Origin: a virus
DNA length: 40,310 nucleotides
Virus record (IMG/VR): IMGVR_UViG_3300045988_159991
Span: 1-40,310 of that record
Reading direction: 5' to 3' (one strand)
Positions 13,618-29,102 of this stretch are shown here, in pieces. Below the pieces are notes generated by a model, which saw nothing but the letters and a program-made list of their open reading frames with translations, searched no databases and was not told where the DNA came from. Both the position numbers and the translations under genes were made by a program. Position 1 is the first letter of the stretch, and each line of letters opens with the position of its first letter.

Positions 13618-13620
13618 TGT

Positions 13621-13905: not shown

Positions 13906-13925
13906 TTTAACTTAAGGAGATAGTA

Positions 13926-14156
13926 ATGAGTAAGCTGACGCACGAAAAACTTCTGGAGTCGAAGCATAACTTCGACTTAGATATGGAGGTTATCTTTGCG
14001 CTTATGGGCGTGTTGCACAACGGTGGCTTAAGCGAGAGTGCCGTCACTGATATCGCCGATAAGCTAGAAAGTTATGTAATTGCCACTAGAGATATGTATA
14101 AAGACTTATGGCGATATGTCGATGAGACTGCGCCGAGCGAGAAAGGAGAGAAGTGA
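13926..14156 (+). CDS. Hypothetical protein (76 aa)
   Basis: ORF with SD AAGGAG. Confidence 0.8.
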   Translation: MSKLTHEKLLESKHNFDLDMEVIFALMGVLHNGGLSESAVTDIADKLESYVIATRDMYKDLWRYVDETAPSEKGEK

Positions 14157-14644
14157 ATAAAAAGTCAATTCTTGATCCGTGTTGCGGTGGCAAGATGTTT
14201 TACTTCGACAAGCATCATCCGCTCGTCATATGTGGCGATGTGCGTCAAGAGTCCGTCTCTATGACCGATCGGGGCAAGCTTAGGTCTCTGGACATTACTC
14301 CGGATGTGATACTGGACTTTACCTGTATGCCGTTTTTGGACGATAGCTTTAGCTTCGTGGTTTTTGACCCGCCTCACCTCATAAATTGCGGGAAGAACAG
14401 TTGGCTGGCGAAGAAGTATGGCAAGCTCGATAAGGACAATTGGCAAGAGACATTGAGCGCAGGCTTGAGCGAATGTATACGTGTGGTTAAGCCCGGTTGT
14501 GTTGTAGCTATGAAGTGGAGCGAGGGTGACATATCGACGGCTAAACTTCTAAAGGCATTGCCCTATAGCCCAGCCTTTGGCGATAAACAGGGCAAGAAGC
14601 GATGGTTGTTTTTTATTAAAGGAATGAAAGGAGGACAACAATGA
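14153..14644 (+). CDS. Small SAM-dependent amino-methyltransferase (DPPH motif), putative DNA N6-A/N4-C methylase
   Basis: Motif I-like ILDPCCGGKMF comes before motif IV FDPPHL. GTG start overlaps the previous stop (GTGA). 163 aa. No partner restriction gene. Confidence 0.55.
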   Translation: MNKKSILDPCCGGKMFYFDKHHPLVICGDVRQESVSMTDRGKLRSLDITPDVILDFTCMPFLDDSFSFVVFDPPHLINCGKNSWLAKKYGKLDKDNWQETLSAGLSECIRVVKPGCVVAMKWSEGDISTAKLLKALPYSPAFGDKQGKKRWLFFIKGMKGGQQ

Positions 14645-14952
14645 TTGATGAAGAGGTTATTGCTACAACAACAGCGTGTGTAGACTTGGGACAGCTTGCA
14701 AAAGCGGTTGCGGCTGTCTGTGCAATGATTGAAGCGGTTATCGAGCGACATGACGATACATCGACAAGTTTTAACGATGAGATACTTGCGCTAGGCAATG
14801 AAATGAAAGTTCATGCCGGCCATATCTACAATGTGGCAATCGAGTTCAGTGATGACGTCTCGCTTACAACTAAGATTAGGATTAAGTCTGAAATTGACAA
14901 GCTGGATAACCTCATCGATGCGTATGAGCAGGTTCAGAAGAAGTCTAAATAA
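14641..14952 (+). CDS. Hypothetical helical protein A1 (103 aa), paralogue of 15725..16048
   Basis: Shared blocks include KAVxxVCAMxEAxIExxDDxST, LGNEMKxHA and TTKIxIKSEIDKLDxLIDAxEQVQKK. Confidence 0.85.
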   Translation: MIDEEVIATTTACVDLGQLAKAVAAVCAMIEAVIERHDDTSTSFNDEILALGNEMKVHAGHIYNVAIEFSDDVSLTTKIRIKSEIDKLDNLIDAYEQVQKKSK

Positions 14953-14963
14953 GAAAGGAGTGG

Positions 14964-15557
14964 ATGATGAAGAGCGATAATATAACTGTATATAGATTAA
15001 AGGAAGATTGGGAGCCGTTTGATAAGGGAGCTGAGTTCATCGATAACAACGACGGTGCGTATGCGCTGAAAATAAATGCTGACGTGACGGCTAAAATACC
15101 AGCGGACCTCTTGGAGTTTGCTTATCAGAAGAGGTGGAGGCCGAAGCGTGGCGAGGAGTACTACTACATACATAACTACGGAAATATCGATACTACCTCA
15201 TTTTGCCCTGCTCATAAAGGTGATGAGAGCAAAGTTGCTATGGGCAATTGTTTTAAGACAAAGGAAGAAGCCAAAGATATGCGCAGTTGGCTCAAAGCCC
15301 GTCAGAGGCTAATTGATAGCGGGGCTGAGTTCATGAACTCAGTCGGTGTAGGTGAAGACGCTGTCTACTATGGTGTTGCGTTTGATAAGACTAATGGCGA
15401 ACTACATACGGTGGAGTGTCATAACGTTGGAGATGACGTCTTTGACAAAAGGTTATATTTTCTCAGTGAATATACTGCCGAGAAAAGCATCAGATACTAT
15501 CGAAGCGACTGGCTGACGTATTTAGGCGTGAAGAAGGATGGCGATGACCAAGACTAA
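14964..15557 (+). CDS. Hypothetical protein B1 (197 aa), paralogue of 17163..17762
   Basis: Shared KRWRxxRGxxYY, GNxFKTxEEAKxxR and RxxWLTxLGVKxxGD blocks. Confidence 0.85.
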   Translation: MMKSDNITVYRLKEDWEPFDKGAEFIDNNDGAYALKINADVTAKIPADLLEFAYQKRWRPKRGEEYYYIHNYGNIDTTSFCPAHKGDESKVAMGNCFKTKEEAKDMRSWLKARQRLIDSGAEFMNSVGVGEDAVYYGVAFDKTNGELHTVECHNVGDDVFDKRLYFLSEYTAEKSIRYYRSDWLTYLGVKKDGDDQD

Positions 15558-15732
15558 AAGACAATTTGACCTCATGGAGTTTATGGGCAATGCCTGTATG
15601 GCGACACTTGCGCTGGCACTCATTTACGGGTTAGTTGCCCATGCCTTCTTCATAACTGATGATGCGTTAAGAGAGAGGCAAAAGAAGATAGACGGTTGTT
15701 GCGCCCAGTGTAAGGAGGACAACAATGAGTGA
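15538..15732 (+). CDS. Small membrane protein C1 (64 aa, or 62 aa from the ATG at 15544) with a C-terminal DALRERQKKIDGCCAQCK module
   Basis: TM helix ACMATLALALIYGLVAHAFFI. The C-terminal module is repeated in 16393..16548. Confidence 0.7.
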   Translation: MAMTKTKRQFDLMEFMGNACMATLALALIYGLVAHAFFITDDALRERQKKIDGCCAQCKEDNNE

Positions 15733-16048
15733 AGAAATTACCAGAACAGCAACGATAACGGTAAACTTAAGTCAATTTACTAAGGCGGTCATGACTGTCT
15801 GCGCGATGGTCGAGGCGGCTATCGAGCAGTATGACGATGCGTCGACTGGTTTTAACGAGGGGATACTTGTGCTAGGCAATGAAATGAAGACTCATGCCGA
15901 CTATATCTACAACGCAGCAATCGAGTCTAGTAAGACCATTCAACTTACGACTAAGATTAGTATCAAGTCTGAGATTGACAAGCTAGACAGCCTCATAGAT
16001 GCGTTTGAGCAGGTTCAGAAGAAGCAGTCGAGTGATGATAATTCATAA
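15725..16048 (+). CDS. Hypothetical helical protein A2 (107 aa), paralogue of 14641..14952
   Basis: SD AAGGAGG. High similarity to A1 at both protein and DNA level. Confidence 0.85.
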   Translation: MSEEITRTATITVNLSQFTKAVMTVCAMVEAAIEQYDDASTGFNEGILVLGNEMKTHADYIYNAAIESSKTIQLTTKISIKSEIDKLDSLIDAFEQVQKKQSSDDNS

Positions 16049-16403
16049 CCTTGGTGCTGAGACTACGTATATTGAGCACTTGCGAACGACGTGGCTCATC
16101 CGGACAGACATAGACGTTGTTGAGTATTCTGACGTCTCAGCTATTCGTTACATCGATGATAGTAGCGACCATCGATATGGCACGTTTGTCTACCGGGTAG
16201 GAGGCGGGGCTTGGCGTATCGCTCGGATTGAGCGTGGATCGAGCAATAAAGAACTTGTTGTAACTCAGAAGAGCGATAAGGTCTATGCCCTACACGAAGT
16301 AATTCCCGCCTTAGCTAGAGGTGGCTATCACGGGGCTAAACAGATAGCTAGTTATATGATGAAGCATTACGGTTTAGAAAAGGAGATAAGCGATGAAGAT
16401 TGA
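16035..16403 (+). CDS. Hypothetical protein (about 122 aa)
   Basis: The ORF-track start at 15999 overlaps A2 by 50 nt, so I use the ATG at 16035 (GTGATG). The SD is weak. Confidence 0.65.
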   Translation: MIIHNLGAETTYIEHLRTTWLIRTDIDVVEYSDVSAIRYIDDSSDHRYGTFVYRVGGGAWRIARIERGSSNKELVVTQKSDKVYALHEVIPALARGGYHGAKQIASYMMKHYGLEKEISDED

Positions 16404-16548
16404 CAACAATGTGCCTCATTTTATCTGTGATGGTGCGTCGGTGACCCGTCTCGGCGATGCTCTAAGAGAGAGGCAAAAGAAGATAGACGGTTGTTGCGCT
16501 CAGTGTAAAGATTTAAGTAATAAGAAAGGAGTAAACAATGAAAAGTAA
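16393..16548 (+). CDS. Small protein C2 (51 aa), absent from the ORF track, shares the CCAQC module with C1
   Basis: Translated by hand: MKIDNNVPHFICDGASVTRLGDALRERQKKIDGCCAQCKDLSNKKGVNNEK. SD AAGGAG at 7 nt. Confidence 0.65.
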   Translation: MKIDNNVPHFICDGASVTRLGDALRERQKKIDGCCAQCKDLSNKKGVNNEK

Positions 16549-16798
16549 TAAGTGTGCGACTAGCACTGAGGTAAATATTGCGTTTACAACAATTTTGGCG
16601 TGTTTAGTGGTATTGCTAGGTGCTATATCAGCACTCTTCGTCCGTGGCGTCATTCATAGCGCCACCCTACCCGATGAAGACCAAGCCCAGTGTGAAAGCT
16701 TGGGCGGGCGGTGGTCGGTCAATCACCAGTGCTATAACGCAGGTGAACCGACGACGATTAAGAAGCTGAAAGATAGCCTGAGGAGTGTCAAAGAGTAA
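16538..16798 (+). CDS. Signal-anchored small protein (86 aa) with an extracytoplasmic Cys pair
   Basis: SD AAAGGAG. TM helix FTTILACLVVLLGAISALFV, then CESLGGRWSVNHQC. Confidence 0.8.
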   Translation: MKSNKCATSTEVNIAFTTILACLVVLLGAISALFVRGVIHSATLPDEDQAQCESLGGRWSVNHQCYNAGEPTTIKKLKDSLRSVKE

Positions 16799-16887
16799 AA
16801 AACAAGGCGTGCCTAAGAAAGGAAGACACGCCATGAATTGCATCTACAGCATGGTAGAGCAACATCGTTATTGTATACGAAAGGGGA

Positions 16888-17148
16888 ATGATGGACAAGG
16901 ACAAGGATAAAGATGTCTATGCGGGCATAATGCGAGTCTATAACATGGACAAAGACTACTGATACACGACGCTACATGCGCTTAAAAACTCCATTACTGC
17001 TGGCGAGAAGGCACAGGCAGAAGAGAGGCTTGACTGGCTGACCAAGTGCCTTGATGACCTAACTAAAACTGCAGACATAGTAGCAGAGTTGCTTAAGGAG
17101 GCACTGGAGCTCGCGGATAAGCATTCTGACAAGAAAGAGAACGATTAG
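16888..17148 (+). pseudogene. 86-codon reading frame interrupted by an in-frame TGA at 16960-16962 (nonsense allele or programmed readthrough)
   Basis: MMDKDKDKDVYAGIMRVYNMDKDY-TGA-YTTLHALKNSITAGEKAQAEERLDWLTKCLDDLTKTADIVAELLKEALELADKHSDKKEND. The 61 sense codons after the TGA look protein-like (helical), but the only in-frame ATG/GTG/TTG is a TTG far downstream (about 20 codons before the stop), so nothing can initiate the segment. Confidence 0.55.
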
Positions 17149-17162
17149 AAAGGAGCAATATC

Positions 17163-17762
17163 ATGGCAAAGTATAGGTTGCTAAAGAATTGGCTTGGCGT
17201 CAAAGCCGGCACTATCTGCGAGACTAACGAGGATGGGTTTGCGGAACTAAAAGCTGACGATGGGTGTATTGTTGCGACCCTCAGTACTAAAGCCGATTGG
17301 TTTGGCGAGTATTTTGAGGAAGTAGGCGATGAATACAAGCGTTGGCGAGCCGACAGGGGCGGTGACTACTATTGCGTCGATAGTGATGGCTCACTGGCAA
17401 CGTATGGGGAATATAACGACAATACTGATAATAGCCTCTATAAAATAGGTAACTATTTTAAGACCGGAGAAGAAGCAAAGCGATGGCGAAACTACATGGT
17501 TGCCTTGCAGACTATCAAGGATGACGCCAAGGGTTTTGCGCCCGACTGGAGTGATAGAGGCGAGTGTAAACATTTTGTCGTGCACGACCACTGTAGCAGT
17601 GCTCTTACTACGGACTATACTAGCACGCTGAACTTCGGCGTTCCCGCCTGCTTTGCCACCGAAGACGACGCTAGAGCGTCTATTGAGAAGCATCGCAAAG
17701 AGTGGCTCACCGTGCTAGGCGTAAAGGGGGGGGGTGACAGCGATGATATGTGTAAGAAATGA
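17163..17762 (+). CDS. Hypothetical protein B2 (199 aa), paralogue of 14964..15557
   Basis: SD AAAGGAG. It has the shared blocks listed for B1. Its C-terminus is encoded partly by a G9 run. Confidence 0.85.
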   Translation: MAKYRLLKNWLGVKAGTICETNEDGFAELKADDGCIVATLSTKADWFGEYFEEVGDEYKRWRADRGGDYYCVDSDGSLATYGEYNDNTDNSLYKIGNYFKTGEEAKRWRNYMVALQTIKDDAKGFAPDWSDRGECKHFVVHDHCSSALTTDYTSTLNFGVPACFATEDDARASIEKHRKEWLTVLGVKGGGDSDDMCKK

Positions 17763-18783
17763 AGTTCCGAAAAAAGCAACCTTGGACGACTATGTCAAAA
17801 GAAACCTAGTCAAATGCCGTCGTGATGATGAGCGTGGCTTGAACGTTTACGTTTACACTGTTCACACCCAGATAAACCGCTTTTGGAATTACGCAACCTT
17901 AGCCGCTAGAGGAATTGTCTACGACGATAAAGGCAGACTTATTCAGCGTTGTTTGCCAAAGTTCTTTAACTATAACGAGCCCGACGGAATTGCCATGGCA
18001 GAACATTATAAAATTGTCCGCCCGACAATTCAGGAGAAACTAGACGGCTCACTGATAAAAGTGACCAACGACCAAGAGTATGGGCTAGTTGTTACCTCAA
18101 AAGGTAGCTTTGACAGTGAGCAGGTCAAGATGGCAAATAAGCTTTTGGAAGACAAGCGTAGACTATGGCAGTTCGAGCCTGGACTAACTTATCACTTTGA
18201 GCTTGTGTCACCTAAGAACAAGATAGTAGTTCCTTACAGGGACACCGAGCTTGTTCTGTTTTGTGTCATAAAAAACGACAGTGGCGTCGAATTAGACCTA
18301 AACGACCGACGGTTCATCAAGTTTACCAAGCCACTCACTTATGATGTTAGGGTTCTTGATGACGTCAACAGCCTCAATGCTCACGGCTTACATGAAGGCG
18401 TGGTAGCCAACTTTACTTATTATCGGTTGAAGTTCAAGACCGACGAGTACCTGAGATTGCACCGCCTCGTGACCGACTTGACGCCAAAAAGGGTTTGGGA
18501 AGCGTTGTCCATCGGGCAAGAGATAGACCGTCTTTGTGTGCCTGAAGAGTTTATCAACTGGCTGGATAGGACAGAGGAGCAGCTAAAGGGGAAATATCAC
18601 GATTTATCATCTGATGTCGCCATGGCTATCCTCTATTGTAGGGATATGACTAACAAGGAGGTAGCTACCTGCCCGAACCCATTTATTAGAAACCATAAGA
18701 GTTACGTTTTAGCTTATCGTTCAGGCAAAGACGTACCACAGATGATGTGGCAAGCTATTAAACCGAAAGGAGGAGTGAAATGA
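17743..18783 (+). CDS. rnlA: T4 Rnl1-type RNA ligase
   Basis: ARGIVYD, PKFFNYNE, IQEKLDGSLIKV (KxDGSL adenylylation motif), SKGSFDSEQVKMAN and HFELVSPKNKIVVPY parallel T4 Rnl1 (recalled from memory: CRGIMFE, EKFFNLNE, TKEDGSLV, SKGSIKSEQ, NFEFVAPTNRIVLAY). I use the ATG at 17743 after the G-rich SD. Confidence 0.85.
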   Translation: MICVRNEVPKKATLDDYVKRNLVKCRRDDERGLNVYVYTVHTQINRFWNYATLAARGIVYDDKGRLIQRCLPKFFNYNEPDGIAMAEHYKIVRPTIQEKLDGSLIKVTNDQEYGLVVTSKGSFDSEQVKMANKLLEDKRRLWQFEPGLTYHFELVSPKNKIVVPYRDTELVLFCVIKNDSGVELDLNDRRFIKFTKPLTYDVRVLDDVNSLNAHGLHEGVVANFTYYRLKFKTDEYLRLHRLVTDLTPKRVWEALSIGQEIDRLCVPEEFINWLDRTEEQLKGKYHDLSSDVAMAILYCRDMTNKEVATCPNPFIRNHKSYVLAYRSGKDVPQMMWQAIKPKGGVK

Positions 18784-19622
18784 AACTCTTACTACTAAAA
18801 GGCTTACCCGCCTCTGGTAAAACCACCTTTGCCAAGGAGCTTGTCAGAAATGACGGAAATTGGATACGGGTGAATAAAGATGATTTGCGCAACATGCTAA
18901 ATGGTGGTAAGTGGTCATCTGGGCGAGAAAGGAAAATAATTGTGTGTGAGCGAACGCTTGTCGAATTATCGCTAGACCAGAAAAAGAACGTAGTGGTGGA
19001 TGATACTAATCTGAACCCAACTCACGAGCGATATTTTAAGGGGTTAGCTGAAAGCCACAACGCCGACTTTGAGATAAAGGAGTTTGATACACCGCTAGAG
19101 GAATGTATTAAGCGTGACAATGCCCGCCCCAACGGCGTCGGTGAGACGGTGATACGGAGAATGTACAATCAGTATCTTAAGCCCGCACCTGCTAAATATA
19201 CGCCAGACCCCATGTTGCAGCCCGCTATCGTTTGCGATATCGATGGCACACTGGCGCACATGCACGACAGGTCGCCGTACGACTGGAGTAAGGTAGGCAA
19301 TGACATGGTAGATATACCCATTGCTTGGCTCACCAGCATCTTGTTTAGAAGCGTCAGCGTAATTCTGGTATCAGGCAGAGATGAGAGCTGTCACAAGGAA
19401 ACTCAAGATTGGCTAGCCAAGAACGGTATCTGTTACACCAAGTTGATTATGCGAAAGGAGGGAGATAATCGACCAGATGAGGTAGTCAAAGAGGAGATAT
19501 TTAACGAGAATATCAGAGGAAGCTATAACGTCAGATTTGTCTTGGATGACCGAAATAAGGTGGTCGACATGTGGCGTCAATTAGGATTAAAATGCTTACA
19601 AGTAGCGGAAGGAGATTTTTAA
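18780..19622 (+). CDS. pseT: Polynucleotide 5'-kinase / 3'-phosphatase (T4 Pnkp type)
   Basis: P-loop GLPASGKTT. DDTNLNP. HAD phosphatase motif VCDIDGTLA. VSGR. DEVVKEEIF. C-terminal LQVAEGDF matches T4 WQVASGDF (recalled from memory). ATGA overlap with the ligase gene. Confidence 0.9.
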   Translation: MKLLLLKGLPASGKTTFAKELVRNDGNWIRVNKDDLRNMLNGGKWSSGRERKIIVCERTLVELSLDQKKNVVVDDTNLNPTHERYFKGLAESHNADFEIKEFDTPLEECIKRDNARPNGVGETVIRRMYNQYLKPAPAKYTPDPMLQPAIVCDIDGTLAHMHDRSPYDWSKVGNDMVDIPIAWLTSILFRSVSVILVSGRDESCHKETQDWLAKNGICYTKLIMRKEGDNRPDEVVKEEIFNENIRGSYNVRFVLDDRNKVVDMWRQLGLKCLQVAEGDF

Positions 19623-19623
19623 G

Positions 19624-19869
19624 ATGTGTGACGAGCTTGCGCACAAAATACGTCTCAGCCTAAACGAGGAGGTGGACTTTCTACATACATGCGCAGACAC
19701 CATAGAAGATATAGTCAAAGAGTCAGGAGATTGTATCGATGTGGCAAGGCTATATCGAACTATCGACATATTGAAACAGTCAATCGACAGAGTGCGCCAT
19801 GACGTTGATGACCTAAACCGATATCACAAGGAGTTAGAGAAGAATGCCGAACCTAAACGAACAAGCTAA
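19624..19869 (+). CDS. Hypothetical protein (81 aa)
   Basis: ORF with SD GAAGGAG. Confidence 0.8.
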   Translation: MCDELAHKIRLSLNEEVDFLHTCADTIEDIVKESGDCIDVARLYRTIDILKQSIDRVRHDVDDLNRYHKELEKNAEPKRTS

Positions 19870-20188
19870 GAACCTAATGGGTGAGGTGCTCATTTGGCTA
19901 GATAACGCCAGGATGCTCAAGATATACGCTAGAATGGCTCACGTTATCATTGATGCGGAATTAGACCCTATAGATTTAGACAATGCTGGTGGAGCATATT
20001 TAGACATATCCGATGAGGTATATAAGTCATTTGCCGTCGGTCACACCAAGACGATAAATAAGCTAGGCGACGTACTCGTTAGGATAATGCTGAGGACTGG
20101 CGTGTACGGCAGGATTATGGATAAGCCAAGCGAGTATTTAGAAGTAATGAGTAAATGTGTCAAGATAAATGAGGAGAGGAAGAAATGA
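19844..20188 (+). CDS. Hypothetical protein (114 aa)
   Basis: ORF overlapping the upstream gene by 26 nt. Confidence 0.75.
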   Translation: MPNLNEQAKNLMGEVLIWLDNARMLKIYARMAHVIIDAELDPIDLDNAGGAYLDISDEVYKSFAVGHTKTINKLGDVLVRIMLRTGVYGRIMDKPSEYLEVMSKCVKINEERKK

Positions 20189-20586
20189 ACAATGTCTATC
20201 CAGACATAACACTTAGTAAAGGGTGTGTACTACTAAGTCAGGCCGATAAATTGTTTAGCACCGTAACACCCATGCCCGATACACTCAGTAGAGGCTATGG
20301 TATCGTTGTCAAGTCAAACAATAGAAGAATAAACAAGCTGTTGCGCAAGGCTACATCCCCTAAGAAAGAAATTAGTATCGTAGTTTTCTTTACTCAGTAT
20401 AGCAGTAGTAACAATATTTGGTATAGAAACAATCCATGCGTCATTGTTCCTAGCAATGGGATTTTAGGAGTGATGGAGTTATCCGATAGCCACGTAAAAC
20501 AATATATCGATGACAGAAAACGTGAAGAGCGTGAGCTACTCGACGAGTTGGAGTCGTCGCAGAGGGGGCAAAGGATTTACCGATGA
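20185..20586 (+). CDS. Hypothetical protein (133 aa)
   Basis: ORF with SD GAGGAGAGG and an ATGA overlap. Confidence 0.8.
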   Translation: MNNVYPDITLSKGCVLLSQADKLFSTVTPMPDTLSRGYGIVVKSNNRRINKLLRKATSPKKEISIVVFFTQYSSSNNIWYRNNPCVIVPSNGILGVMELSDSHVKQYIDDRKREERELLDELESSQRGQRIYR

Positions 20587-20795
20587 TACAGAAATGGTAC
20601 TGCTTAGTATGTGACCACTGTGGCGATGTGATGAACTACTGGGAGCGTTCATCAGTAAAAGAAGCATTAGCTGCTGAGCGTGAATTCGTCAGTGGTAGCG
20701 TTATATTCTCGAACGGTAAGACGTTTTGTAATAGAGAGTGCTACAAAAACTATCTGGCTAAACACCGCCGTAGTCAAGATGAGACGGATAAATAA
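20583..20795 (+). CDS. Small zinc-finger protein (70 aa), CxxC...CxxxC
   Basis: CLVCDHC ... CNRECY. Basic C-terminus. It lies near the end of the early/middle operon. Confidence 0.75.
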   Translation: MIQKWYCLVCDHCGDVMNYWERSSVKEALAAEREFVSGSVIFSNGKTFCNRECYKNYLAKHRRSQDETDK

Positions 20796-20811
20796 CGGAT
20801 AACTTTACGTG

Positions 20812-21228
20812 ATGACCGAAGCTGATTTACAAGTGCAAGTAGCTTATTACCTCAGGTTGCAATACCCCGACGTCATTTTTCACTCTGATTATGGCTCAGG
20901 GGTTAGGCTAACCAGATATCAGGCTAATGTGCAACGTAAACAGAACGGTGGACGTCGAGCCTACCCAGATATGTTCATCGCCAAAATGATGAACGGTAAG
21001 GGTGGGCTATTCATTGAACTGAAAAAGGAGGGTACTAAATTAAAGAAGAAAGATGGCACTTGGCTTACCTCTCATCTAGCTGAACAAGCGGAGATGCTGG
21101 AGAAGCTAAGGAGCGAGGGTTATGAAGCCACTTTTGCTGTAGGCTTTGACGAGGCTAAAGAGATAATCGATAATTATCTAGGTAAGAGAATGACTAACAA
21201 GGAGCGGGTAGATAAGGAGGGCTTTTGA
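20812..21228 (+). CDS. VRR-NUC family PD-(D/E)XK nuclease
   Basis: EADLQVQVAYYL ... YPDMFI ... GGLFIELKKEG ... EQAEMLEKLRSEGYEATFAVGFDEA fits the VRR-NUC pattern. Confidence 0.75.
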   Translation: MTEADLQVQVAYYLRLQYPDVIFHSDYGSGVRLTRYQANVQRKQNGGRRAYPDMFIAKMMNGKGGLFIELKKEGTKLKKKDGTWLTSHLAEQAEMLEKLRSEGYEATFAVGFDEAKEIIDNYLGKRMTNKERVDKEGF

Positions 21229-21229
21229 T

Positions 21230-21493
21230 GTGAGCAGAAAATACACCACACATAAAAGTAAGTTATCTAAAATTGAAGGAGGGTATAAGACTAGAGATAA
21301 GAATATAGCCAAGTATGGCGCAGACTACTACAAGAGGATTGGTTCAAAAGGCGGTAAAAACAGTACTATGCGCTGGTTTAGAGATGTGCCTGGAAGTGCC
21401 AGACGAGCCAGATTGGCTAGACAACGTCGACGACTAGGGCGCATAAAGGGCTGGAAATATGATTTGGCTGATTTATTGGGGTTAAGGTCATGA
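21230..21493 (+). CDS. KGG-motif basic protein (87 aa)
   Basis: GTG start with AAGGAGGG 8 nt upstream. YGADYYKRIGSKGGKNS parallels YGNDYYSRIGKVGGQNG of 12473..13048. Confidence 0.7.
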   Translation: MSRKYTTHKSKLSKIEGGYKTRDKNIAKYGADYYKRIGSKGGKNSTMRWFRDVPGSARRARLARQRRRLGRIKGWKYDLADLLGLRS

Positions 21494-21579
21494 AGAAAGA
21501 TTTATGGGACAGCATAGCTAACGTTATATTGATTGTCGGTTGGGTGATAATAACGATATTGATGATTGTCACCCGTTGA
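21490..21579 (+). CDS. Possible 29-aa membrane peptide
   Basis: ATGA overlap with the previous stop. MKKDLWDSIANVILIVGWVIITILMIVTR. Below the ORF-track cutoff. Confidence 0.4.
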   Translation: MKKDLWDSIANVILIVGWVIITILMIVTR

Positions 21580-21653
21580 CGTGATATGTAAGTATGGTAG
21601 ACTAGCTACATACAATCGTGAATGCATCAGCCGGCAGTAGTCACGGTTGGAAG

Positions 21654-21698
21654 CCCACATCAAAAGGTCTTGTGCCTGAGGTGTGGGTTTTTTGTTTT
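21654..21698 (+). terminator. Intrinsic terminator ending the early/middle operon
   Basis: Stem cccacatc / ggtgtggg (with inner agg/cct) followed by ttttttgtttt. Confidence 0.75.
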
Positions 21699-21704
21699 AC
21701 CACC

Positions 21705-21740
21705 CATCATTGTAATAACATCATCAGGTTGACGTCATGA
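21705..21740 (+). promoter_or_regulatory. 36-bp conserved late-operon element (copy 2)
   Basis: catcattgtaataacatcatcaggttgacgtcatga is the exact reverse complement of 4010-4045. It is followed by TATAAT (21743-21748), N6, then the ATG at 21755. Confidence 0.7.
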
Positions 21741-21754
21741 GGTATAATTAGTCT

Positions 21755-22234
21755 ATGAGCAAAAGGACAGACGGCAAGAGTGGTTTTGCAATCGGCGTCG
21801 GAAAACGCATGAATGGCACTTGGAAGAAAGAGCGAACGCCACGTGGACGATTAGAGATATTATTAAATGACGTTAGCTATGAGCAGTTGAAAGACTTGTT
21901 CAGACGATTAGACAATGACGAGTTTGACGGCACAGCTAGAGTTGGTGACGTTTTAGATATTGCCGTTTTGAAAGAGATTTTCGTCAGAAATGCGCCTGGC
22001 GAAAAGATAAAAGTCTCTAGCGACAAATTGTTAAAACTTTACGATTTTATTTATGGCAAGAAGTCTGAAAACAGTCTAAACGGCAAAATTGACGTCGATA
22101 TTGACGCCAAAATGACTAGCGTCAGAGGCTTTATATTGCCAGTATCAGGTCAAGACTTTATCGATGAAAAAGGGCGACAGATTGAGCAAGGTGACGTCAA
22201 GCCGTCTGAAGACGCTGGGAAACGACAAAGCTAA
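21755..22234 (+). CDS. Putative small terminase subunit (159 aa)
   Basis: The call is by position only, immediately upstream of and overlapping terL. Basic N-terminus. No SD (leaderless candidate). Confidence 0.5.
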   Translation: MSKRTDGKSGFAIGVGKRMNGTWKKERTPRGRLEILLNDVSYEQLKDLFRRLDNDEFDGTARVGDVLDIAVLKEIFVRNAPGEKIKVSSDKLLKLYDFIYGKKSENSLNGKIDVDIDAKMTSVRGFILPVSGQDFIDEKGRQIEQGDVKPSEDAGKRQS

Positions 22235-23804
22235 TAAGTTACGTTCATCAGGCTACTGGGTGCCGATGCCGGGGCCTCAGACGCTAGCCTCAGCCGTAGC
22301 TAGTGATAGGCGTTTTCGTGAGATTTTATACGGCGGGGCAAGAGGCGGTGGTAAAACGGATCTGTCGATAGCCCTGCTTGGCGTTAGGTTGGCTAATAAG
22401 AGAGCTAAACAATTAGTTATTAGACGTAACGCTGATGATTTAACTGATTTTGAGTGGCGAGCTAAAGAGGCGTATCAATTCTTGGGGATTAAAACAACGC
22501 ATAAACCTCTATTATTCACGGGTAACGGTAGAGGCAGATTGCTCGGCGGTCATCTGAACGACGAGGATAGCTATACGAAGTATCAGGGGCACGAATATTG
22601 CCGTATCAATATCGAAGAGTTGACCCAGATACCTTACGAGGACATGTATCTCAGGCTTATCAGCTCAGCAAGAAGCAAATATCATGATTTGTATCCTCAG
22701 GTATTCAGCACTACTAATCCAGGTGGCGTGGGTATGGCGTGGGTCAAAGAACGTTTTGTCACGCCCGATACTGACCTGTGCGATGTGGTTCATAACACCT
22801 ATAAATGGTATGACTACGATGGCAAAGAGCATAAAACTCACTGGCAGGTGGTTATTGACAAGCAGACGGGATTATGGCGAGCATACATACCAGCTACTAT
22901 CGACAGCAATCCTATCTTGATGAAAGCTGACCCTGAATACGTTAGGCAGTTGGAGGGACTGAAACAGACTAACCCTGAGCTATACGAGGCTTGGCGTAAT
23001 GGCTCATGGGACGTCCAGTTCGGTGCAGTTTTCGACGACTTTAGCACCGAAAGGCACGTATTTGATAAGTTTGCTGAGTTCGGCATAACTCAAAAACAAT
23101 ACAAGTCGTCATGGAAGATATGCGGTATGGACTGGGGCTACAACGATGAATGTGTGCTACTGTGGGCGATGTTTGACAAAATAGGCGACGGTAAAGAACG
23201 AGCGTTCATCTTTCGGGAAAAGCACGGCAATCATCATGGCTCAGAGTGGTGGGCTAAGGAGTTTGCCCGCATCCAAGAGAAAGACCCGGTCGATGTCTTT
23301 GCCGTGCCACATGACGCTTATGCTCACTCGGGCGGGGCTGATAAGACTATTGCTGAAGCGTTCAAAGAGCAGACCGATTTGTTACCGCCCGACATAAGAC
23401 CTATCTATGTGCGAGCCGACAAGATGATGAGAGATAAGAAGATTAGCGCTATTGATACATTACACAACATGTTTGCTAACGCTTTAGATAACGAGCCGTC
23501 ATTACTTTTTCACCGCACCTGCAACTATCTGATAAAAACGCTACCGACCATCGTTTACGCTAAAGAGACAGGCGGTGAGGAGCTGGATAAAGATAACGTT
23601 GACCATGCCCTTGACGCCCTATTCTACACACTACTGACGGCTGACCGAGTGAGAGGCTCGTTAGTCAATCGTAGCCAGATAATCAAGAAGGTGACGCCGT
23701 CGTTTGTCACCGGGCTACACAACGTATACAAAGATGTTGGGTTGGATATTGAACGCCTTGTCAAAGAGGCTAATCAGCCAAAACGTGATTGGCGCACTAT
23801 TTAG
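22164..23804 (+). CDS. terL: Terminase large subunit
   Basis: Walker A YGGARGGGKTD. Walker B-like RINIEELTQ. Nuclease-domain acidic motifs GMDWGYND and DHALDALFY. The exact start is uncertain: there is no SD, the ORF-track ATG overlaps terS by 71 nt, and an ATG at 22266 is an alternative. Confidence 0.85.
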   Translation: MKKGDRLSKVTSSRLKTLGNDKANKLRSSGYWVPMPGPQTLASAVASDRRFREILYGGARGGGKTDLSIALLGVRLANKRAKQLVIRRNADDLTDFEWRAKEAYQFLGIKTTHKPLLFTGNGRGRLLGGHLNDEDSYTKYQGHEYCRINIEELTQIPYEDMYLRLISSARSKYHDLYPQVFSTTNPGGVGMAWVKERFVTPDTDLCDVVHNTYKWYDYDGKEHKTHWQVVIDKQTGLWRAYIPATIDSNPILMKADPEYVRQLEGLKQTNPELYEAWRNGSWDVQFGAVFDDFSTERHVFDKFAEFGITQKQYKSSWKICGMDWGYNDECVLLWAMFDKIGDGKERAFIFREKHGNHHGSEWWAKEFARIQEKDPVDVFAVPHDAYAHSGGADKTIAEAFKEQTDLLPPDIRPIYVRADKMMRDKKISAIDTLHNMFANALDNEPSLLFHRTCNYLIKTLPTIVYAKETGGEELDKDNVDHALDALFYTLLTADRVRGSLVNRSQIIKKVTPSFVTGLHNVYKDVGLDIERLVKEANQPKRDWRTI

Positions 23805-23815
23805 ACAGTGGTGGA

Positions 23816-25996
23816 ATGGCTATAGCGTGCTATGATAGCCATAATATGAACGACAATCAGCAACCACTTTTTCATGACCCCTCAGTAGACGTTATCACTG
23901 ACCAGACAGACGTCGTAGATGAACAAGCTGTCTTAAAGCTGGATATTGACGATAGACAGCTCATCTCTAACTTTAGACGCTGGATTGATGACAGCAAGGA
24001 TTATTGGAATGATACGGACGGTTACAATCTGGAGAACGTACGCAATCAGAATGAGCGATATTACTTGGGCAAGCAGATAGACAAGACGTTGCTTTATCCT
24101 CATCAAGTGCCGTATCAAGAGAACGTTATCTTTACCGATGTGCAAGCCATCATGGCTTACGTTACTGCCTCAGAGCCGTCATGTGAGGTAGTACCAGATA
24201 ATGACAAAACTCAGTCAATGGTCATGGCTGAAGATTTGGAGCGGGCTATCAATATTCACACCGAACGTCACAAGCTAGCTGAAAAGATAAAGTCTGCCGT
24301 CAAGAACATGTATCTCAAGCGAGTCGGCATTATTAAGCTGATGTGGGATGAAAAGTCGAATGATATCAAGCCTGTCGCCGTTGACCCTGCCCGAGTGATT
24401 TTAGATAAGAACTGTCTCTTAGGTGAAGAGCCACGGTTTATATGTGAGGTGTGTCTGAAGAGCGTGGGTGAACTGGTGAAACAATTCCCTGACAAGAAAG
24501 ATGCACTGCTCAAAGCCTTAGGTAGAGAGCGATGGAGTCAAAAGCTACTTAACGAGATGATAGCCTATAACGAGATATGGTTTACTGACGACACGGCCGA
24601 CTATGGCGAGCAGGAGTGTGTAGCCTGGTATTACAAGGACGTCGTCTTTGATAAAATGAAAAACCCGAATTATCTCTATGACGGTGAGGGCGTGGCTGTC
24701 AATAACTTCTTAGATAGACCGACAAAACCGTATGTCTTCTTTAACTATATCAATGACGGCTCATCACTGATTGACCAGACCACCCCGCTGGAGCAGGTTA
24801 TACCGTTACAAGACGTCTTGAATAAGCGAGGGCGACAGATTGTTGAAAATGCCGACACGGCTAACTCTATCCTGGTGTTTAAGGCTGGGGCAATCAAGCA
24901 AGAGACGGCAGAGAATATCACCCGTGACCCTAACCAGAAGATATTGCTAGAGACACCGCCAGAACAGCCTGTCAGCAGTGCCTATGGTGAGATAGAACCG
25001 CACCTGTTGCCTAACTACGTTATAAACGATAAACAGGATATTAAGAATGCTATCCATGATATTTTAGGTGCACCAAGCCAGTTCAGAGGCAGTAACGACA
25101 ACGACAACGTCAATACTTTAGGTGAGGCTCAGATGATTAAGTCTCAAGCTAGCGGTAGGCAGGACGAGATTGTACGTGCTATCGAGATGAGTTTGGACAG
25201 CTACTTTAAGTTGCTGGTTCAGATGATGAAAGTTTACTATGACGAAAAACATCCGTTTGCCACCAGAGATACTGACGGTAAGTTTGTCTACACTGAACTA
25301 TCCAGGGCTACTATGCCCGATATTGCCTCTATCTCTATCTCTCATGGCTCATTACTTAAGGTAGACCGTGAGAGACGAGAGAATGTAGCTATGGCGATGG
25401 CTAAGATGGGGCTGATTGACCCGTACAACTTATTCAAAGACCTATCACTACATGATGCCGATAAACGTTATGAAGCTTTAGTTAAGTTTAAAGTAGACCC
25501 GACCAGTCTGGTTAGCGACGTTAAGACTGAGGTGGACAACCGTGAAGCTTATATCGACTTTGCCACTATCATGGGCGGTAATAATGCCGAGCCACGTCAA
25601 GATATCGAGCCTGGCTATATCTTAGCTATGCGTAAATTGCTGATGACTGACCAATTCTTGTATGCTAAGCCTGACCGACAGAAAAAGTTGCTGGACTACA
25701 TCCAAGGTTGCGTGATTGATTTAGGTAACCGAGTGAGACTGGAGCAGGCTGACCAAGCTGGATTACTGGTAGACCCGAGCATACCGATTACCCCAGAGCC
25801 ACCCGAAGTGCCACCCGAGATGATGGCTCAGCAACAGCAACCCCAGCCACCGATGCCACCTGACCAAGCCCAGCCCGAACAACCACCTGTTCAGAATATG
25901 CCCAATGTACCTAACCAGGAAGCCCCTGTCTCTATCCAGGACGCAGGTATACCTCAAGACGCCATTAGTACACTAGGTGGATTGCTAGGAGGCTAG
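23816..25996 (+). CDS. Portal protein (about 726 aa) with a Pro/Gln-rich C-terminal tail
   Basis: The call is by size and position directly after terL. The ORF-track TTG at 23789 overlaps terL, so I use the ATG at 23816. The start is uncertain. Confidence 0.7.
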   Translation: MAIACYDSHNMNDNQQPLFHDPSVDVITDQTDVVDEQAVLKLDIDDRQLISNFRRWIDDSKDYWNDTDGYNLENVRNQNERYYLGKQIDKTLLYPHQVPYQENVIFTDVQAIMAYVTASEPSCEVVPDNDKTQSMVMAEDLERAINIHTERHKLAEKIKSAVKNMYLKRVGIIKLMWDEKSNDIKPVAVDPARVILDKNCLLGEEPRFICEVCLKSVGELVKQFPDKKDALLKALGRERWSQKLLNEMIAYNEIWFTDDTADYGEQECVAWYYKDVVFDKMKNPNYLYDGEGVAVNNFLDRPTKPYVFFNYINDGSSLIDQTTPLEQVIPLQDVLNKRGRQIVENADTANSILVFKAGAIKQETAENITRDPNQKILLETPPEQPVSSAYGEIEPHLLPNYVINDKQDIKNAIHDILGAPSQFRGSNDNDNVNTLGEAQMIKSQASGRQDEIVRAIEMSLDSYFKLLVQMMKVYYDEKHPFATRDTDGKFVYTELSRATMPDIASISISHGSLLKVDRERRENVAMAMAKMGLIDPYNLFKDLSLHDADKRYEALVKFKVDPTSLVSDVKTEVDNREAYIDFATIMGGNNAEPRQDIEPGYILAMRKLLMTDQFLYAKPDRQKKLLDYIQGCVIDLGNRVRLEQADQAGLLVDPSIPITPEPPEVPPEMMAQQQQPQPPMPPDQAQPEQPPVQNMPNVPNQEAPVSIQDAGIPQDAISTLGGLLGG

Positions 25997-25997
25997 A

Positions 25998-27293
25998 ATG
26001 AGCGTTTTAAGCAGTTTATTTAAGAGATTGCTCAAGGGTAGAGGCGATGATATCGCTGAAAAGGTAGCTCAGAATTATGGTGATGATGCTATTAGGATTG
26101 CTACTAACGGCATTAAGAACCATTTGGATGAGGGGCTTGACTCTGCCAGTAACCTGATAGCTACCCACCAGATATCGCCCGAAAAGTTAGCTCAGGCAAC
26201 CGAGATGGGTGGTTTTATGCACCCGTCTTTAGCTGTCACTGCCCCAGGACGAGGTGGTGGCACATTAAACCCCAGTTATGGCGATATTGTTATGGTGGCC
26301 AACCGCAACCAATTCTCACCGACCGCAGGCAAGTCTGTTATTGCCGACCGAGACATTTGGTCGCCGACCGTACCGGAGAGTATTGCCGAGGTTGACAAGA
26401 AGGCGCTAGATAGAATACTTAAGGCGAACGGAGCAAAGGAGTCTGCCTCTGACCTAATGAGGTCTGGCGGGCTTGACCTAAATAATCCAGAGAGTGGGCT
26501 AGCTAATTTATATCGTATTATTATGGGCGAATCAGATGCTTGGTTGCCTGATGTTATTAGGGCTGACGACTACAAAGCTTTTGCTAAAGACATTGCCGAT
26601 AAAATTACTAAAAGGCGCGTCTTTGACGTACAAGACGGTAAAGGCAACTGGGTAACTAAGCCGTACACGCCCGAAAATGTCGATAAATATATGAGCCAAG
26701 GCTCAGCTATCAATCGTGTGGGGTACGATAACCCATACAACGATATGATTATCAATCACAACCAACAGTTCAAGTCAACCACCCCGCTTTATAAACAAGC
26801 TAATCGGCTGATGAGCAAAGAACTATCCGAACCCTCTTACAATGCTATGATTGACGAATTTGAGCGCATAAAAGACCTGCTTGGCAGTAAGGATATACCT
26901 AGCGATTATGCCCCAAGCTATGCTTTGTCTGAAATGCTGGCAGGCAATCTACCCGTTACTAAAAGTATAAGACCGCAAGTAGATGAGTTCCGTACCGCCC
27001 TGAAGAATATCCCTGTGCCGTATTTTGAGGCTAAACTCAGACGTATCGAGCCAGGTAGTAACTTCTATGGAGCTTTAGTGCCTGATGATGTCTCTGGTGA
27101 GGTGATGGACAATCTGGCTAAACTAGGCGTCAATAATATCCAGCCATACAACGTTGATGAAGGTATTCAATCTTACCTTGGCAACATGGCTAAAAGAGGG
27201 CGACGGCTTGTCAATCCATACGTACTTGGACTAGGCGGAGCAGGCGTCTTATCCAGTTTGTTCAGTGGTCAAAACGGCTCAGATAACGTATAG
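25998..27293 (+). CDS. Head-associated / internal virion protein candidate (431 aa)
   Basis: SD AGGAGG. It follows the portal gene. The N-terminal motif LFKRLLKGRGDDIAEKVAQNYGDD is shared with the 609-aa protein on the other strand. Confidence 0.85.
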   Translation: MSVLSSLFKRLLKGRGDDIAEKVAQNYGDDAIRIATNGIKNHLDEGLDSASNLIATHQISPEKLAQATEMGGFMHPSLAVTAPGRGGGTLNPSYGDIVMVANRNQFSPTAGKSVIADRDIWSPTVPESIAEVDKKALDRILKANGAKESASDLMRSGGLDLNNPESGLANLYRIIMGESDAWLPDVIRADDYKAFAKDIADKITKRRVFDVQDGKGNWVTKPYTPENVDKYMSQGSAINRVGYDNPYNDMIINHNQQFKSTTPLYKQANRLMSKELSEPSYNAMIDEFERIKDLLGSKDIPSDYAPSYALSEMLAGNLPVTKSIRPQVDEFRTALKNIPVPYFEAKLRRIEPGSNFYGALVPDDVSGEVMDNLAKLGVNNIQPYNVDEGIQSYLGNMAKRGRRLVNPYVLGLGGAGVLSSLFSGQNGSDNV

Positions 27294-27346
27294 TGACATA
27301 AACAACATTTTAAGATAGACTAAAATTGTAATAAGAAAGGAGATAG

Positions 27347-28432
27347 ATGAGCGATATCGCCGATATCTTAGAGAACGCTTTGGCTAATGAAGAGCAACCC
27401 GAGCAGCCAGATACTGGGCAGGATAATCAGCCAGAACAGCCAGAGCAAGAGACTCAGGACGAGGGGCAATCAGACACCAACCAAGACGAAGCTCAGTTTG
27501 AAGCTAACCAGGAAGAGTCTCAGAATGATGAGGCTGACCAAGAGCAATCCGACCAAGAGCAAGAGGATAAGCAAGAGGGCGAAGGCGAACAAAAAGACGA
27601 GCAATCCGAGCCTGAACAGCCTCAGGAAAAACAAGAACCAGAAGTTCAGAAAAAGCAGGAACAGCCTCAGTCAGTCAGTGACGAGATGTTGCGAGCTGAA
27701 CTTGAACGACGGGGTATGGTAGCCACCAAAAAGCAAGACCAGCCTCAGCCCGAAGACCCCCGTTTTAGCCAGCCAAGAGAGCTACCTGACGCCGTGTGGT
27801 CAAGGATGACCGAAGAGGGCAAGTATATCTACAACCAGTTGCCCTATCTGACCATTAGAGGTAAGGACGGTATTCTTAGGGTTAAGTCTGATGAACAGAT
27901 ACCGCCAGATTTTGAGTGGGCTGATGAGGCGGAAAAGACACAATTCTACTCTAAGGAGCTACCCGCTCAGGTTTATAGGGCAGAACAACTCAACGCTCAG
28001 GTGACTAAAGCTGTCGAGGACTACAATCGAGAGCTGGAACGGCAACGTGAGGCTCAGACGATAGTACAGGGCGTCGAGAAGCTACAGGCTAGTGGTATTT
28101 TGCCTAAAATACCTGGCGAGCGTGGCAGTAAAGAGTACGAGGGATCGGCAGAGCTGGCTTATGTAAACAACGTACTTGGCTTATGGGAACAGCATCATCG
28201 TCAAGGTGAGAACATCTCTATCGAGACCGCAGCCTATCTATATAAGGCTCAACACCCCGATGCATTGAAGCCTAAGCCGACTACCACCCCTACGGACAAG
28301 ATGCGCAAGGCTAAGTCAACTAATATCAACGGCGGAGCAAAGGGTAAAGCTATGCCTGAACAGAGGCACACTTTCCCGCCAGGGACAATGCCGAGCGACA
28401 TAATAGATTATTATCTGGATGATTTTGAATAA
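27347..28432 (+). CDS. Putative scaffolding-like protein (361 aa) with an acidic Q/E/P-rich N-terminal third
   Basis: SD AAAGGAG. Low-complexity EQPEQ repeats, then helical segments. The call is positional only. Confidence 0.8.
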   Translation: MSDIADILENALANEEQPEQPDTGQDNQPEQPEQETQDEGQSDTNQDEAQFEANQEESQNDEADQEQSDQEQEDKQEGEGEQKDEQSEPEQPQEKQEPEVQKKQEQPQSVSDEMLRAELERRGMVATKKQDQPQPEDPRFSQPRELPDAVWSRMTEEGKYIYNQLPYLTIRGKDGILRVKSDEQIPPDFEWADEAEKTQFYSKELPAQVYRAEQLNAQVTKAVEDYNRELERQREAQTIVQGVEKLQASGILPKIPGERGSKEYEGSAELAYVNNVLGLWEQHHRQGENISIETAAYLYKAQHPDALKPKPTTTPTDKMRKAKSTNINGGAKGKAMPEQRHTFPPGTMPSDIIDYYLDDFE

Positions 28433-28441
28433 AGGAGGGAT

Positions 28442-29086
28442 ATGGCAGAAAACACTAGTAATGCAGACCAGAGCGACAATTTAGAAGATACGCTGACTCA
28501 AGACCTTGACTCAAGCACTAGGGGGACTGAAGTAGCTTCATCTCAATCAATGCGTGAGATTTTGCGAGGTATGTTTGAACCGAGCGATTACGTTAAGCTA
28601 ACTAACCCGTTCAAGTATTCTATGGGGTGGGTATACGCTAATCCTGCCAAGCAACCTAAGTCGGAGCAGACATCAGGTGCAGGCAAGCGTGTTTATCACG
28701 GCGTGCAGGATAAGAAGATACTCGAGCCTGGCGAGAGTACCGCAGTAACAGGCGGAGAGGCTTATGTGGCTATCGAGCGAATGTACAAGCGTTACGTACA
28801 GATAGAGGGCGACGTGATTATCATGTTCAATAACCCCGAGTTTATGCGTGAGTTTATCCCACGTGTCTACAAAGGCAAGGTCGATGTGGCAGAGCTAATC
28901 GACATGATAGACAACAAGCACCAACCAGCCCCCGTCGAGGTTAAAACCGAAGACTTAGCGCAGATGCGTGAGAACATCGCTGACGATATCGACACTCTGG
29001 GTTTTGCTGACGAGGACGAGCCCGAAGCACCTAAAGAGATAAAGTTCAAGAAGCCTGTCGGTAGACCGCCCAAAAATAGTAAGTAG
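28442..29086 (+). CDS. Hypothetical head-module protein (214 aa) with a C-terminal AT-hook-like KKPVGRPPKNSK
   Basis: SD AAAGGAGGG. GRP core flanked by Lys residues at the extreme C-terminus. Confidence 0.8.
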   Translation: MAENTSNADQSDNLEDTLTQDLDSSTRGTEVASSQSMREILRGMFEPSDYVKLTNPFKYSMGWVYANPAKQPKSEQTSGAGKRVYHGVQDKKILEPGESTAVTGGEAYVAIERMYKRYVQIEGDVIIMFNNPEFMREFIPRVYKGKVDVAELIDMIDNKHQPAPVEVKTEDLAQMRENIADDIDTLGFADEDEPEAPKEIKFKKPVGRPPKNSK

Positions 29087-29102
29087 TTGCTAAAATGAGG
29101 GT

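Follow-up and report, generated by a model that had tools for sequence, protein, structure and literature searches.

Flip-flop isomerization through inverted repeats is known from the L and S segments of herpes simplex virus and from the yeast 2-micron plasmid, the latter using a dedicated recombinase, FLP. Phages Mu (Gin/gix) and P1 (Cin/cix) carry an adjacent serine invertase that acts on 26-bp sites with a crossover dinucleotide and an enhancer and inverts a tail-fibre segment of 3-4 kb. Repeated short signals that head divergent operons are familiar from lambda nutL/nutR and from the Ogr-dependent late promoters of P2. The nearest precedent for the locus described here is the invertible region of ~30 kb in the Anabaena cyanophages A-1(L), N-1 and A-Lf14, which has inverted repeats of 400-700 nt (bioRxiv 10.64898/2026.02.14.705889). 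A Red-type system can also invert a lambda segment between inverted repeats; such recombination needs ~30 bp of homology and is mostly non-reciprocal, with a minority of crossovers (PMC2327257), and recombineering reviews give ~40-50 nt as the working homology (PMC7516269). Here, we analyzed a 36-bp inverted repeat in a viral genome (IMG/VR record IMGVR_UViG_3300045988_159991, positions 1 to 40,310; this whole stretch of 40,310 nt is called the window), which had been predicted from the sequence to be a late-gene activator site or non-canonical late promoter. The repeat is to be seen as a substrate of recombination no less than as a promoter signal. We consider it probable that homology drives both conversion and flip-flop inversion at this short repeat of the late-promoter regions.

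Two copies of a short repeat and their concerted evolution

The window is the genome of a Saccharibacteria (TM7) podophage from the human mouth. Its closest described relative is the TM7 phage DolZOral124_53_65 (terL 63.5% identical at the protein level), the contig of one relative was binned in a Saccharibacteria metagenome-assembled genome (MAG), and portal and adaptor match SU10-type Pfam families. An exact 55-nt terminal direct repeat (1-55 = 40256-40310) identifies the window as a circular contig of 40,255 bp from an assembly with k = 55, and with this k-mer length a repeat of 36 nt was unable to confuse the assembler. The two repeat copies split the circle into an early/replication half of 17.7 kb and a late/structural half of 22.6 kb. 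Their flanks are labelled T (early-operon terminator), P (early promoter), S (terS side) and Q (adaptor side), and the features concerned are as follows.

21705..21740, + strand: repeat copy 1 (T/S junction), with the early-operon terminator on one side and the terS -10 box on the other; exact match; kept in all clade members; breakpoint in contig 144796
4010..4045, - strand: repeat copy 2 (P/Q junction), between the early-promoter cassette and the adaptor -10 box; exact reverse complement; co-varies with copy 1 in 10/10 genomes; second breakpoint
4046..21704, in both orientations among relatives: early/replication segment E (blastn of contig 144796 against the window; second T/Q junction in ERZ772766 NODE_3164)
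21669..21697, + strand: intrinsic terminator, end of the early operon or of a small-RNA unit (T flank); nucleotide diversity (pi) 0.022, the most conserved stretch of the region
4061..4125, + strand: early-promoter cassette TTGACT-N17-TATTAT with Shine-Dalgarno site (P flank), which is directed away from the repeat into a 153-aa gene; the cassette has four direct copies in all, 60-94% identical

The exact 36-mer CATCATTGTAATAACATCATCAGGTTGACGTCATGA was confirmed at 21705-21740 (+) and 4010-4045 (-). No inverted repeat in the window is longer, and the two arms are separated by 17,659 nt. A search of the window that allowed up to 3 mismatches gave no further match (0 expected from 100 shuffles), and a search with each half of the element gave no additional copy, diverged or not. 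The flanks of the two copies proved unrelated, as had been predicted, save for a short CCAC/CAC by the outer edge, and the terminator expected directly before the 21.7-kb copy was located at 21669-21697. The only dyads of the element are the 8-bp TGACGTCA and the 6-bp TCATGA, which are overlapping palindromes. The same T/S and P/Q junctions occur in at least five independent human-oral assemblies of the strain in the window, so they are not an assembly quirk of this contig. In a scan of the host genome, the element was found only on the phage contig binned into the Saccharibacteria MAG, and it is therefore not a host repeat.

An ATG embedded in the element had been said to open a short open reading frame (ORF) in one copy and a 300-aa ORF in the other. 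The four-codon ORF (ATG AGG TAT AAT TAG) is right, but the ATG at 4013 on the - strand is not the true start of the 300-aa ORF, whose homologues all begin with MKTFTQMK or MRTFTQMK at the in-frame ATG at 3989. With the true adaptor start at 3989, both repeat copies are fully intergenic. The 300-aa ORF is over-extended by 8 codons (3987-4013, -), the real product being an SU10-type head-tail adaptor of 292 aa; public gene calls for this adaptor are split between 300-, 292- and 286-aa versions.

The clade used for comparison comprises ~25 genomes at ~90% nucleotide identity in IMG/VR, ENA and JGI, all from human oral metagenomes, which are ~9-14% divergent from one another in every flank. A check on these relatives had been proposed together with the prediction, and it showed that every relative with this operon layout retains both copies. 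Both could be read in ten genomes, and in all ten they are identical over a block of 32-41 nt. Seven haplotypes are found between genomes (GG, GC, TG, AG or AC at positions 23-24, plus T17G and C32T). When copies were paired at random, a mean of 2.2 pairs was identical, and identity of all ten pairs has p = 6.6e-6 (permutation). The edges of the identical block vary among genomes, and in genome 137474 the tract copied 5-6 nt of the terS-side flank into the adaptor-side copy, which argues for templated conversion. Among 18 T-side sequences the element has a pi of 0.053, with 11/36 sites segregating, and the neighboring ORF, intergenic DNA and small-RNA-like region have values of 0.045-0.058; only the terminator hairpin is lower (0.022). 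The element thus drifts at the local rate between genomes and shows no divergence within a genome, as expected from gene conversion and not from selection on every base. This pattern indicates that gene conversion, rather than selection on 36 bases, would explain the perfect identity of the copies.

These data also bear on a different explanation, which we regard as possible at most, namely that the element is purely a transcription signal (a non-canonical late promoter, or a site for an activator or alternative sigma factor) in which every base is selected, with inversion as a rare accident. Its retention in both copies by every clade member speaks for this. Diversity at the level of the flanks combined with identity within each genome, over seven haplotypes, is more than selection alone can account for. 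In addition, the T-side copy of a 39-kb relative (L149; ERZ27248747 k141_869221) carries a 1-nt deletion and a change of TTGACGTCA to TTGAGATCA, and its palindrome is destroyed.

The element is absent from the collinear relatives DolZOral124, MW202566 and IMG/VR L027-L030. More distant relatives, including a group with ~60% terL identity, are all collinear and without it, and no intermediate lineage was found among them. The second copy appeared when the adaptor-capsid module became inverted with respect to the collinear ancestor, the arrangement of which is seen in DolZOral124 and MW202566.

Another repeat family of the genome, the early cassettes, consists of four direct 65-nt copies (4061-4125, 7881-7945, 10301-10365 and 13391-13455, all +), each with TTGACT-N17-TATTAT, AAGGAGG and ATG, and 60-94% identical to one another. 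An analogous family of three 75-nt cassettes is present in DolZOral124. The cassettes of the window are not homogenized, and even the closest pair (4061 and 7881; 94%) has perfect runs of at most 30 nt. Such short runs fit with exchange between direct repeats leading to lethal deletion, whereas exchange between inverted repeats is harmless.

Orientation of the early segment and candidate recombination machinery

Two arrangements of the genome were found among the relatives: the A-type of the window, with T/S and P/Q junctions, and the B-type, with T/Q and P/S junctions. In contig 144796 (ERZ773093 NODE_262, 39,828 bp, 55x), the element joins T to the adaptor operon and P to terS. Its blastn alignment to the window changes strand at 4012-4045 and 21707-21740, where adjoining alignments share 32-36 nt of the element. 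An independent T/Q junction with different flank haplotypes is present in ERZ772766 NODE_3164. Inverted repeats thus bound a segment whose alternative arrangement has its breakpoints inside these repeats, as in flip-flop systems. A recombination site had been offered as an alternative in the original prediction, and the comparative data support it directly, both through concerted evolution and through the breakpoints in the repeat. The two B-type genomes belong to different T-flank clades, which suggests that inversion probably occurred more than once. They stand against ~14 A-type genomes among those that are resolved.

Additional information came from the ends of incomplete contigs. Five contigs of 23-25 kb cover no more than the late segment and have their two ends in or at the element, and one Saccharibacteria MAG contig also ends in it. 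In ERZ773057, the terS end of the late-segment contig (10.8x) stops at the outer edge of a 40-nt repeat, and two early-segment contigs (9.5x and 10.7x), equal to it in coverage, stop exactly at the inner repeat edge. Altogether, six assemblies break at repeat edges, and other samples assemble through in one orientation. The assemblies of the study that yielded ERZ773057 used k = 55, as is evident from the 55-nt circular overlap of NODE_206, and a repeat of 40 nt would not break the assembly graph by itself. Two arrangements side by side would produce breaks of precisely this form, which indirectly suggest that both isomers may have been present in one sample.

It is very unlikely that these junctions are chimeric assembly products, or that the element is a packaging sequence (pac/cos) or the terminal inverted repeat of a linear replicon. 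The element does adjoin terS, a frequent location of pac and cos sites, and several 23-25-kb contigs have the repeat at either end, as a linear replicon would. However, the same junctions were obtained from metaSPAdes, MEGAHIT and JGI assemblies of many samples, and the repeat is shorter than k = 55 and unable to collapse the graph by itself. The 23-25-kb contigs lack replication genes, early contigs from the same sample end at the same repeat, and no protein-primed polymerase was found in the ORF scans. A second, inverted cos or pac copy 17.7 kb away would moreover cut the genome in two. The packaging site that had been listed as an alternative was rejected on the basis of gene content and the matching early-segment contigs.

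The search for enzymes that could act on the repeat revealed the following genes.

10580..11497, + strand: RecT-family single-strand annealing protein (Pfam RecT, E = 3.7e-40)
11475..12473, + strand: YqaJ-type exonuclease, RecT partner (Pfam YqaJ, E = 4.5e-09)
20809..21228, + strand: VRR-NUC/Holliday-junction-resolvase-like nuclease (phrog_5702, E = 6e-11; weak Pfam VRR_NUC)

The identical block of 32-41 nt lies just above the ~30-bp threshold for Red-type recombination. The 36-mer forms the central part of an inverted repeat of 32-41 bp located at both boundaries between early and late genes, each copy standing just upstream of a TATAAT without a -35 box and of the putative leaderless ATG of one of the convergent late operons. 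We hypothesize that the two copies recombine with each other through homology. In non-crossover events, one repeat would be copied onto the other, giving identity within a genome and drift between genomes. In crossover events, the early segment would flip relative to the late segment, giving two genome isomers. Either isomer would be viable, since -10 box, start codon and terminator stay with each transcription unit, and the flip would change only which late operon follows the terminator of the early operon. The likely enzymes would be the RecT/YqaJ pair of the phage together with the resolvase-like nuclease.

Breakpoints that fall exactly within the element, both orientations in nature, the overlapping palindromes TGACGTCA and TCATGA, and the many unannotated early proteins could alternatively point to the target of a dedicated site-specific recombinase, that is, to a programmed invertase switch that chooses the late operon downstream of the early operon. 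We regard this as improbable. Scans of ~56 ORFs with Pfam or PHROGs gave no match to a serine or tyrosine recombinase domain. The two copies are identical along the entire 32-41 nt and not just at a crossover core, the ends of the identical block vary, and conversion tracts reach into the flank. The element lacks an architecture of two inverted arms around a spacer, its palindrome is disrupted in L149, and the isomer ratios are strongly skewed. Two specific candidates of this kind were rejected: a Gin/Hin/Cin serine-invertase system, as neither Pfam nor PHROGs gave a match to Resolvase or Recombinase families and identity is not confined to a core, and a lox/FRT/fim site for a tyrosine recombinase, as there was no match to Phage_integrase and no 11-13-bp arms around a 6-8-bp spacer.

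Several points weigh against the reading that we prefer, in which conversion and inversion are driven by homology. RecT is a putative catalyst by gene content only, and many early proteins have no annotation, so that a novel recombinase is possible. The presence of both copies in every genome, at the heads of both late operons, hints at a selected function outside this explanation. The A-type dominates among the resolved genomes (~14 versus 2) and the strain of the window is A-type in every assembly, so flipping is not fast. Coexistence of the isomers is read from patterns of contig breaks, and such breaks would equally arise from a mixture of strains that differ in arrangement. A more far-reaching version, which we put forward as speculative, is that the ~36-bp repeat is a selected isomerization device with a length just above the RecT pairing threshold, through which a population could maintain two isomers. 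The isomers would then differ in the late operon (packaging/portal/lysis or adaptor/capsid) that follows the early operon and its leaky terminator, tuning the dosage or timing of head versus tail proteins as a form of bet-hedging; or else the repeat would be the site of an unrecognized recombinase among the orphan early genes.

Late-operon heads and other genome features

Each copy was confirmed to head a late operon, one running from terS, terL and portal to amidase and holin and the other from the adaptor to the major head protein. The start of each operon carries the same short arrangement.

21743..21757, + strand: TATAAT-N6-ATG, putative -10 box and leaderless terS start (ATG 21755); outside the repeat, whose inner edge is 2 nt away
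3987..4001, - strand: TATAAT-N6-ATG, putative -10 box and leaderless head-tail adaptor start (ATG 3989); outside the repeat, whose inner edge is 8 nt away; SU10_adaptor Pfam

In all relatives, the -10 hexamer and its 6-nt distance to the ATG are kept and the six spacer bases are variable. Neither the terS nor the adaptor start has a Shine-Dalgarno site, and the arrangement fits with -10 boxes of putative leaderless late mRNAs. A third TATAAT-N6-ATG (39407-39421, -) overlaps the stop of a 261-aa ORF and opens a 275-aa ORF, also with no Shine-Dalgarno site. There, TAYAAT-N6-ATG is kept in 12 relatives (start at 39421) and no element lies upstream; it may be an internal leaderless promoter of the adaptor-capsid operon. 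The collinear relatives have extended -10 promoters (TGnTAYAAT) at the two equivalent positions and no 36-mer.

A hexamer close to TTGACA, TTGACG, occupies positions 25-30 of the element in both copies. Its distance to the TATAAT was confirmed as 8 nt in the terS copy and 14 nt in the adaptor copy; at these distances it is unable to act as a -35 box, and the original prediction had already taken it to be no canonical one. A spacer of 16-18 nt is thus found in neither copy, and a consensus scan gave no forward promoter common to both. The hexamer reads TTTACG in the relative L148 (ERZ28657963 scaffold_282), and in L149 it lies within the disrupted stretch. The same scan returned a reverse-strand ATGACG-N18-TACAAT inside the element in both copies. 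This reverse sigma-70 promoter was discarded, as its -10 is not conserved (T9C, which turns TACAAT into TGCAAT, in the full-length L151, L152 and L157). The -10 boxes of the late operons lie outside the repeat at different registers, 2 versus 8 nt from its edge, which corresponds to half a helical turn.

For the element as purely a transcription signal, this anatomy offers arguments on both sides. It heads both late operons directly after the early terminator, it combines the TTGACG hexamer with a conserved downstream TATAAT-N6-ATG, and a small Zn-ribbon protein is encoded just upstream. The clade has also lost the TG of the extended -10 of its collinear relatives, for which an upstream element could plausibly compensate. 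These features, together with the presence of both copies in every genome, point toward a role in transcription. A strict role of this kind is contradicted by the register difference of 6 bp, by -35 spacings of 8 and 14 nt that are unfit and leave no shared forward sigma-70 promoter, by diversity at the neutral level, by the TTTACG of L148 and the variant of L149 with its lost palindrome, and by the third conserved TAYAAT-N6-ATG start, which has no element. No sigma factor or known activator family was found in the ORF scans. Of the late activator site or non-canonical promoter that had been predicted, the position at the operon heads and the conserved TATAAT-N6-ATG stand, but a promoter or activator function of the 36-mer itself is not supported. 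Judged from its position, it is plausible that the 36-mer contributes as an upstream module of the putative late promoters.

Known types of late control were also considered. The RNA of the element folds less stably in the operon direction than shuffled sequences (z = +1.65 to +1.85), with no stable hairpin, and the whole window gave no Rfam family; a nut/put-type antitermination RNA was dropped on these grounds. A P2 Ogr-type late promoter was excluded as well, as the sole TGT (positions 7-9) is followed after 12 nt by AGG and not by ACA. The 70-aa CxxC...CxxxC protein encoded at 20583-20795 had no match to the Ogr/Delta family in Pfam or PHROGs.

A candidate small RNA of ~90 nt (21576-21697, +) separates the repeat from the last early ORF. 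Its sigma-70-like promoter (TTGACG-N16-TAGACT with TG) is followed by two hairpins, the second of which is the terminator; the fold z-score is -3.7, pi in relatives is 0.045, and no Rfam family matches. Directly before this unit and the repeat, a very basic KGG-like protein of 87 aa is encoded (21230-21493, +). An identical sequence of it is indexed in 186 blocks of a public collection, so that it is far more conserved than its neighbors, and it is a candidate DNA-binding protein.

The late half of the genome is organized as follows.

21755..33727, + strand: late operon 1 (terS, terL, portal, amidase-SH3 endolysin, holin and further genes)
1..3989, - strand: late operon 2, proximal part (adaptor of 292 aa, 671-aa and 86-aa proteins)
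33773..40255, - strand: late operon 2, distal part, linked over the circular junction to the proximal part that starts at 3989; its last gene encodes the major head protein (33773-34864)
33727..33757, no strand assigned: bidirectional terminator hairpin common to both convergent late operons (AAAAAGCCACC...GGTGGCTTTTT, read directly)

The terminator hairpin at 33727-33757 is flanked by an A-run and a T-run, and just upstream of it the 3' end of a 397-aa ORF contains, at 33607-33719, a tandem duplication of 63 bp (50 nt, 96% identical). The 431-aa protein that follows the portal (25998-27293, +) has a PBECR5 nuclease domain (Barnase/EndoU/RelE-like). In late operon 2, adjacent proteins of 275 and 310 aa (37607-39409, -) are paralogues, both assigned to phrog_37153.

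Segment E comprises the 153-aa gene, a Cpn60/Cpn10 module and a long plus-strand operon, which is driven by the four copies of the 65-nt cassette, each a sigma-70 promoter plus Shine-Dalgarno site. The operon encodes a replication initiator, RecT, the YqaJ exonuclease, a DNA methyltransferase and an RNA ligase with PNKP, as well as the 70-aa Zn-ribbon protein, the resolvase-like nuclease and the 87-aa basic protein. A wHTH-like protein of 105 aa is encoded at 8777-9094. The chaperonin module (5312-7093, -), with a Cpn60 of 482 aa and a weak Cpn10-like protein of 106 aa, lies on the strand opposite the early operon and is also found in DolZOral124 and MW202566. The T4-type RNA ligase and the subsequent PNKP (17734-19622, +) resemble a tRNA-repair pair, which hints at a Saccharibacteria host with an anticodon-nuclease defence. 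Diverged direct duplications inside the early operon (14680-14943 versus 15761-16024, 78%; 15661-15716 versus 16456-16511, 93%) point to small early genes that are paralogues. Neither in the window nor in DolZ was a tRNA found, and megablast of the region against GenBank phages gave no match.

Implications and comparison with known systems

Perfect identity of short repeats resembles functional constraint, but here it would be a signature of gene conversion, and this calls for caution in motif-based promoter calling in uncultured phages. The locus suggests that a repeat of 32-41 bp, at the lower limit for recombination of the single-strand annealing protein type, can keep its own copies identical and bring about the inversion of 44% of a phage genome in nature. 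Genome isomerism mediated by inverted repeats, so far associated with cyanophages, organelles and herpesviruses, would be extended to phages of Saccharibacteria (Candidate Phyla Radiation, CPR) in the human mouth. Such isomerism would also account for the frequent assembly of these oral phages as a late fragment of 23-25 kb plus early fragments, and it offers a simple assay, by PCR or read mapping, of recombination activity in an uncultured phage-host system.

Compared with the repeated signals of lambda nut and P2 Ogr, the present locus likewise has two opposite copies, one for each co-timed operon, and a gene for a small Zn-finger protein lies close by, which also holds for P2 Ogr. Unlike these systems, it shows no nut/put-like RNA structure and no TGT-N12-ACA dyad, its distance to the -10 box is not fixed, and the identity of the copies would be upheld by conversion and not by constraint. 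With Mu and P1 it shares short inverted sites that bound an invertible phage segment and the occurrence of both orientations, whereas no serine invertase, defined crossover dinucleotide, enhancer or tail-fibre switch was found here.

The repeats of chloroplasts, herpes simplex virus and the 2-micron plasmid range from hundreds of bp to tens of kb and their isomers are roughly equimolar, while the repeat described here is of near-minimal length and one isomer predominates. As in the chloroplast flip-flop (PMC7145664), inverted repeats separate unique segments, orientation isomers exist, and the repeats are kept identical by concerted evolution. The inversion around lambda pL by Red (PMC2327257) is similar in that a phage annealing protein/exonuclease pair acts, or here may act, on inverted repeats, with conversion as the main outcome and ~30 bp as the minimal homology. 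The lambda case was engineered with IS10 or oxa repeats of hundreds of bp, whereas the present one is natural and has ~36 bp, with RecT/YqaJ as the putative actors.

The Anabaena cyanophages are the most similar, with a large fraction of the genome between inverted repeats and either orientation among related phages. No dedicated recombinase was identified there either, and homology-driven exchange was suggested (bioRxiv 10.64898/2026.02.14.705889). Coexistence of the isomers was proven in those phages by PCR and read mapping, whereas here it is deduced from assembly breaks. What is new relative to this precedent is the repeat length, which at 32-41 nt is an order of magnitude shorter, its location at the late-operon heads, in two late-promoter regions, the visible concerted evolution of its copies, and the host phylum, Saccharibacteria.

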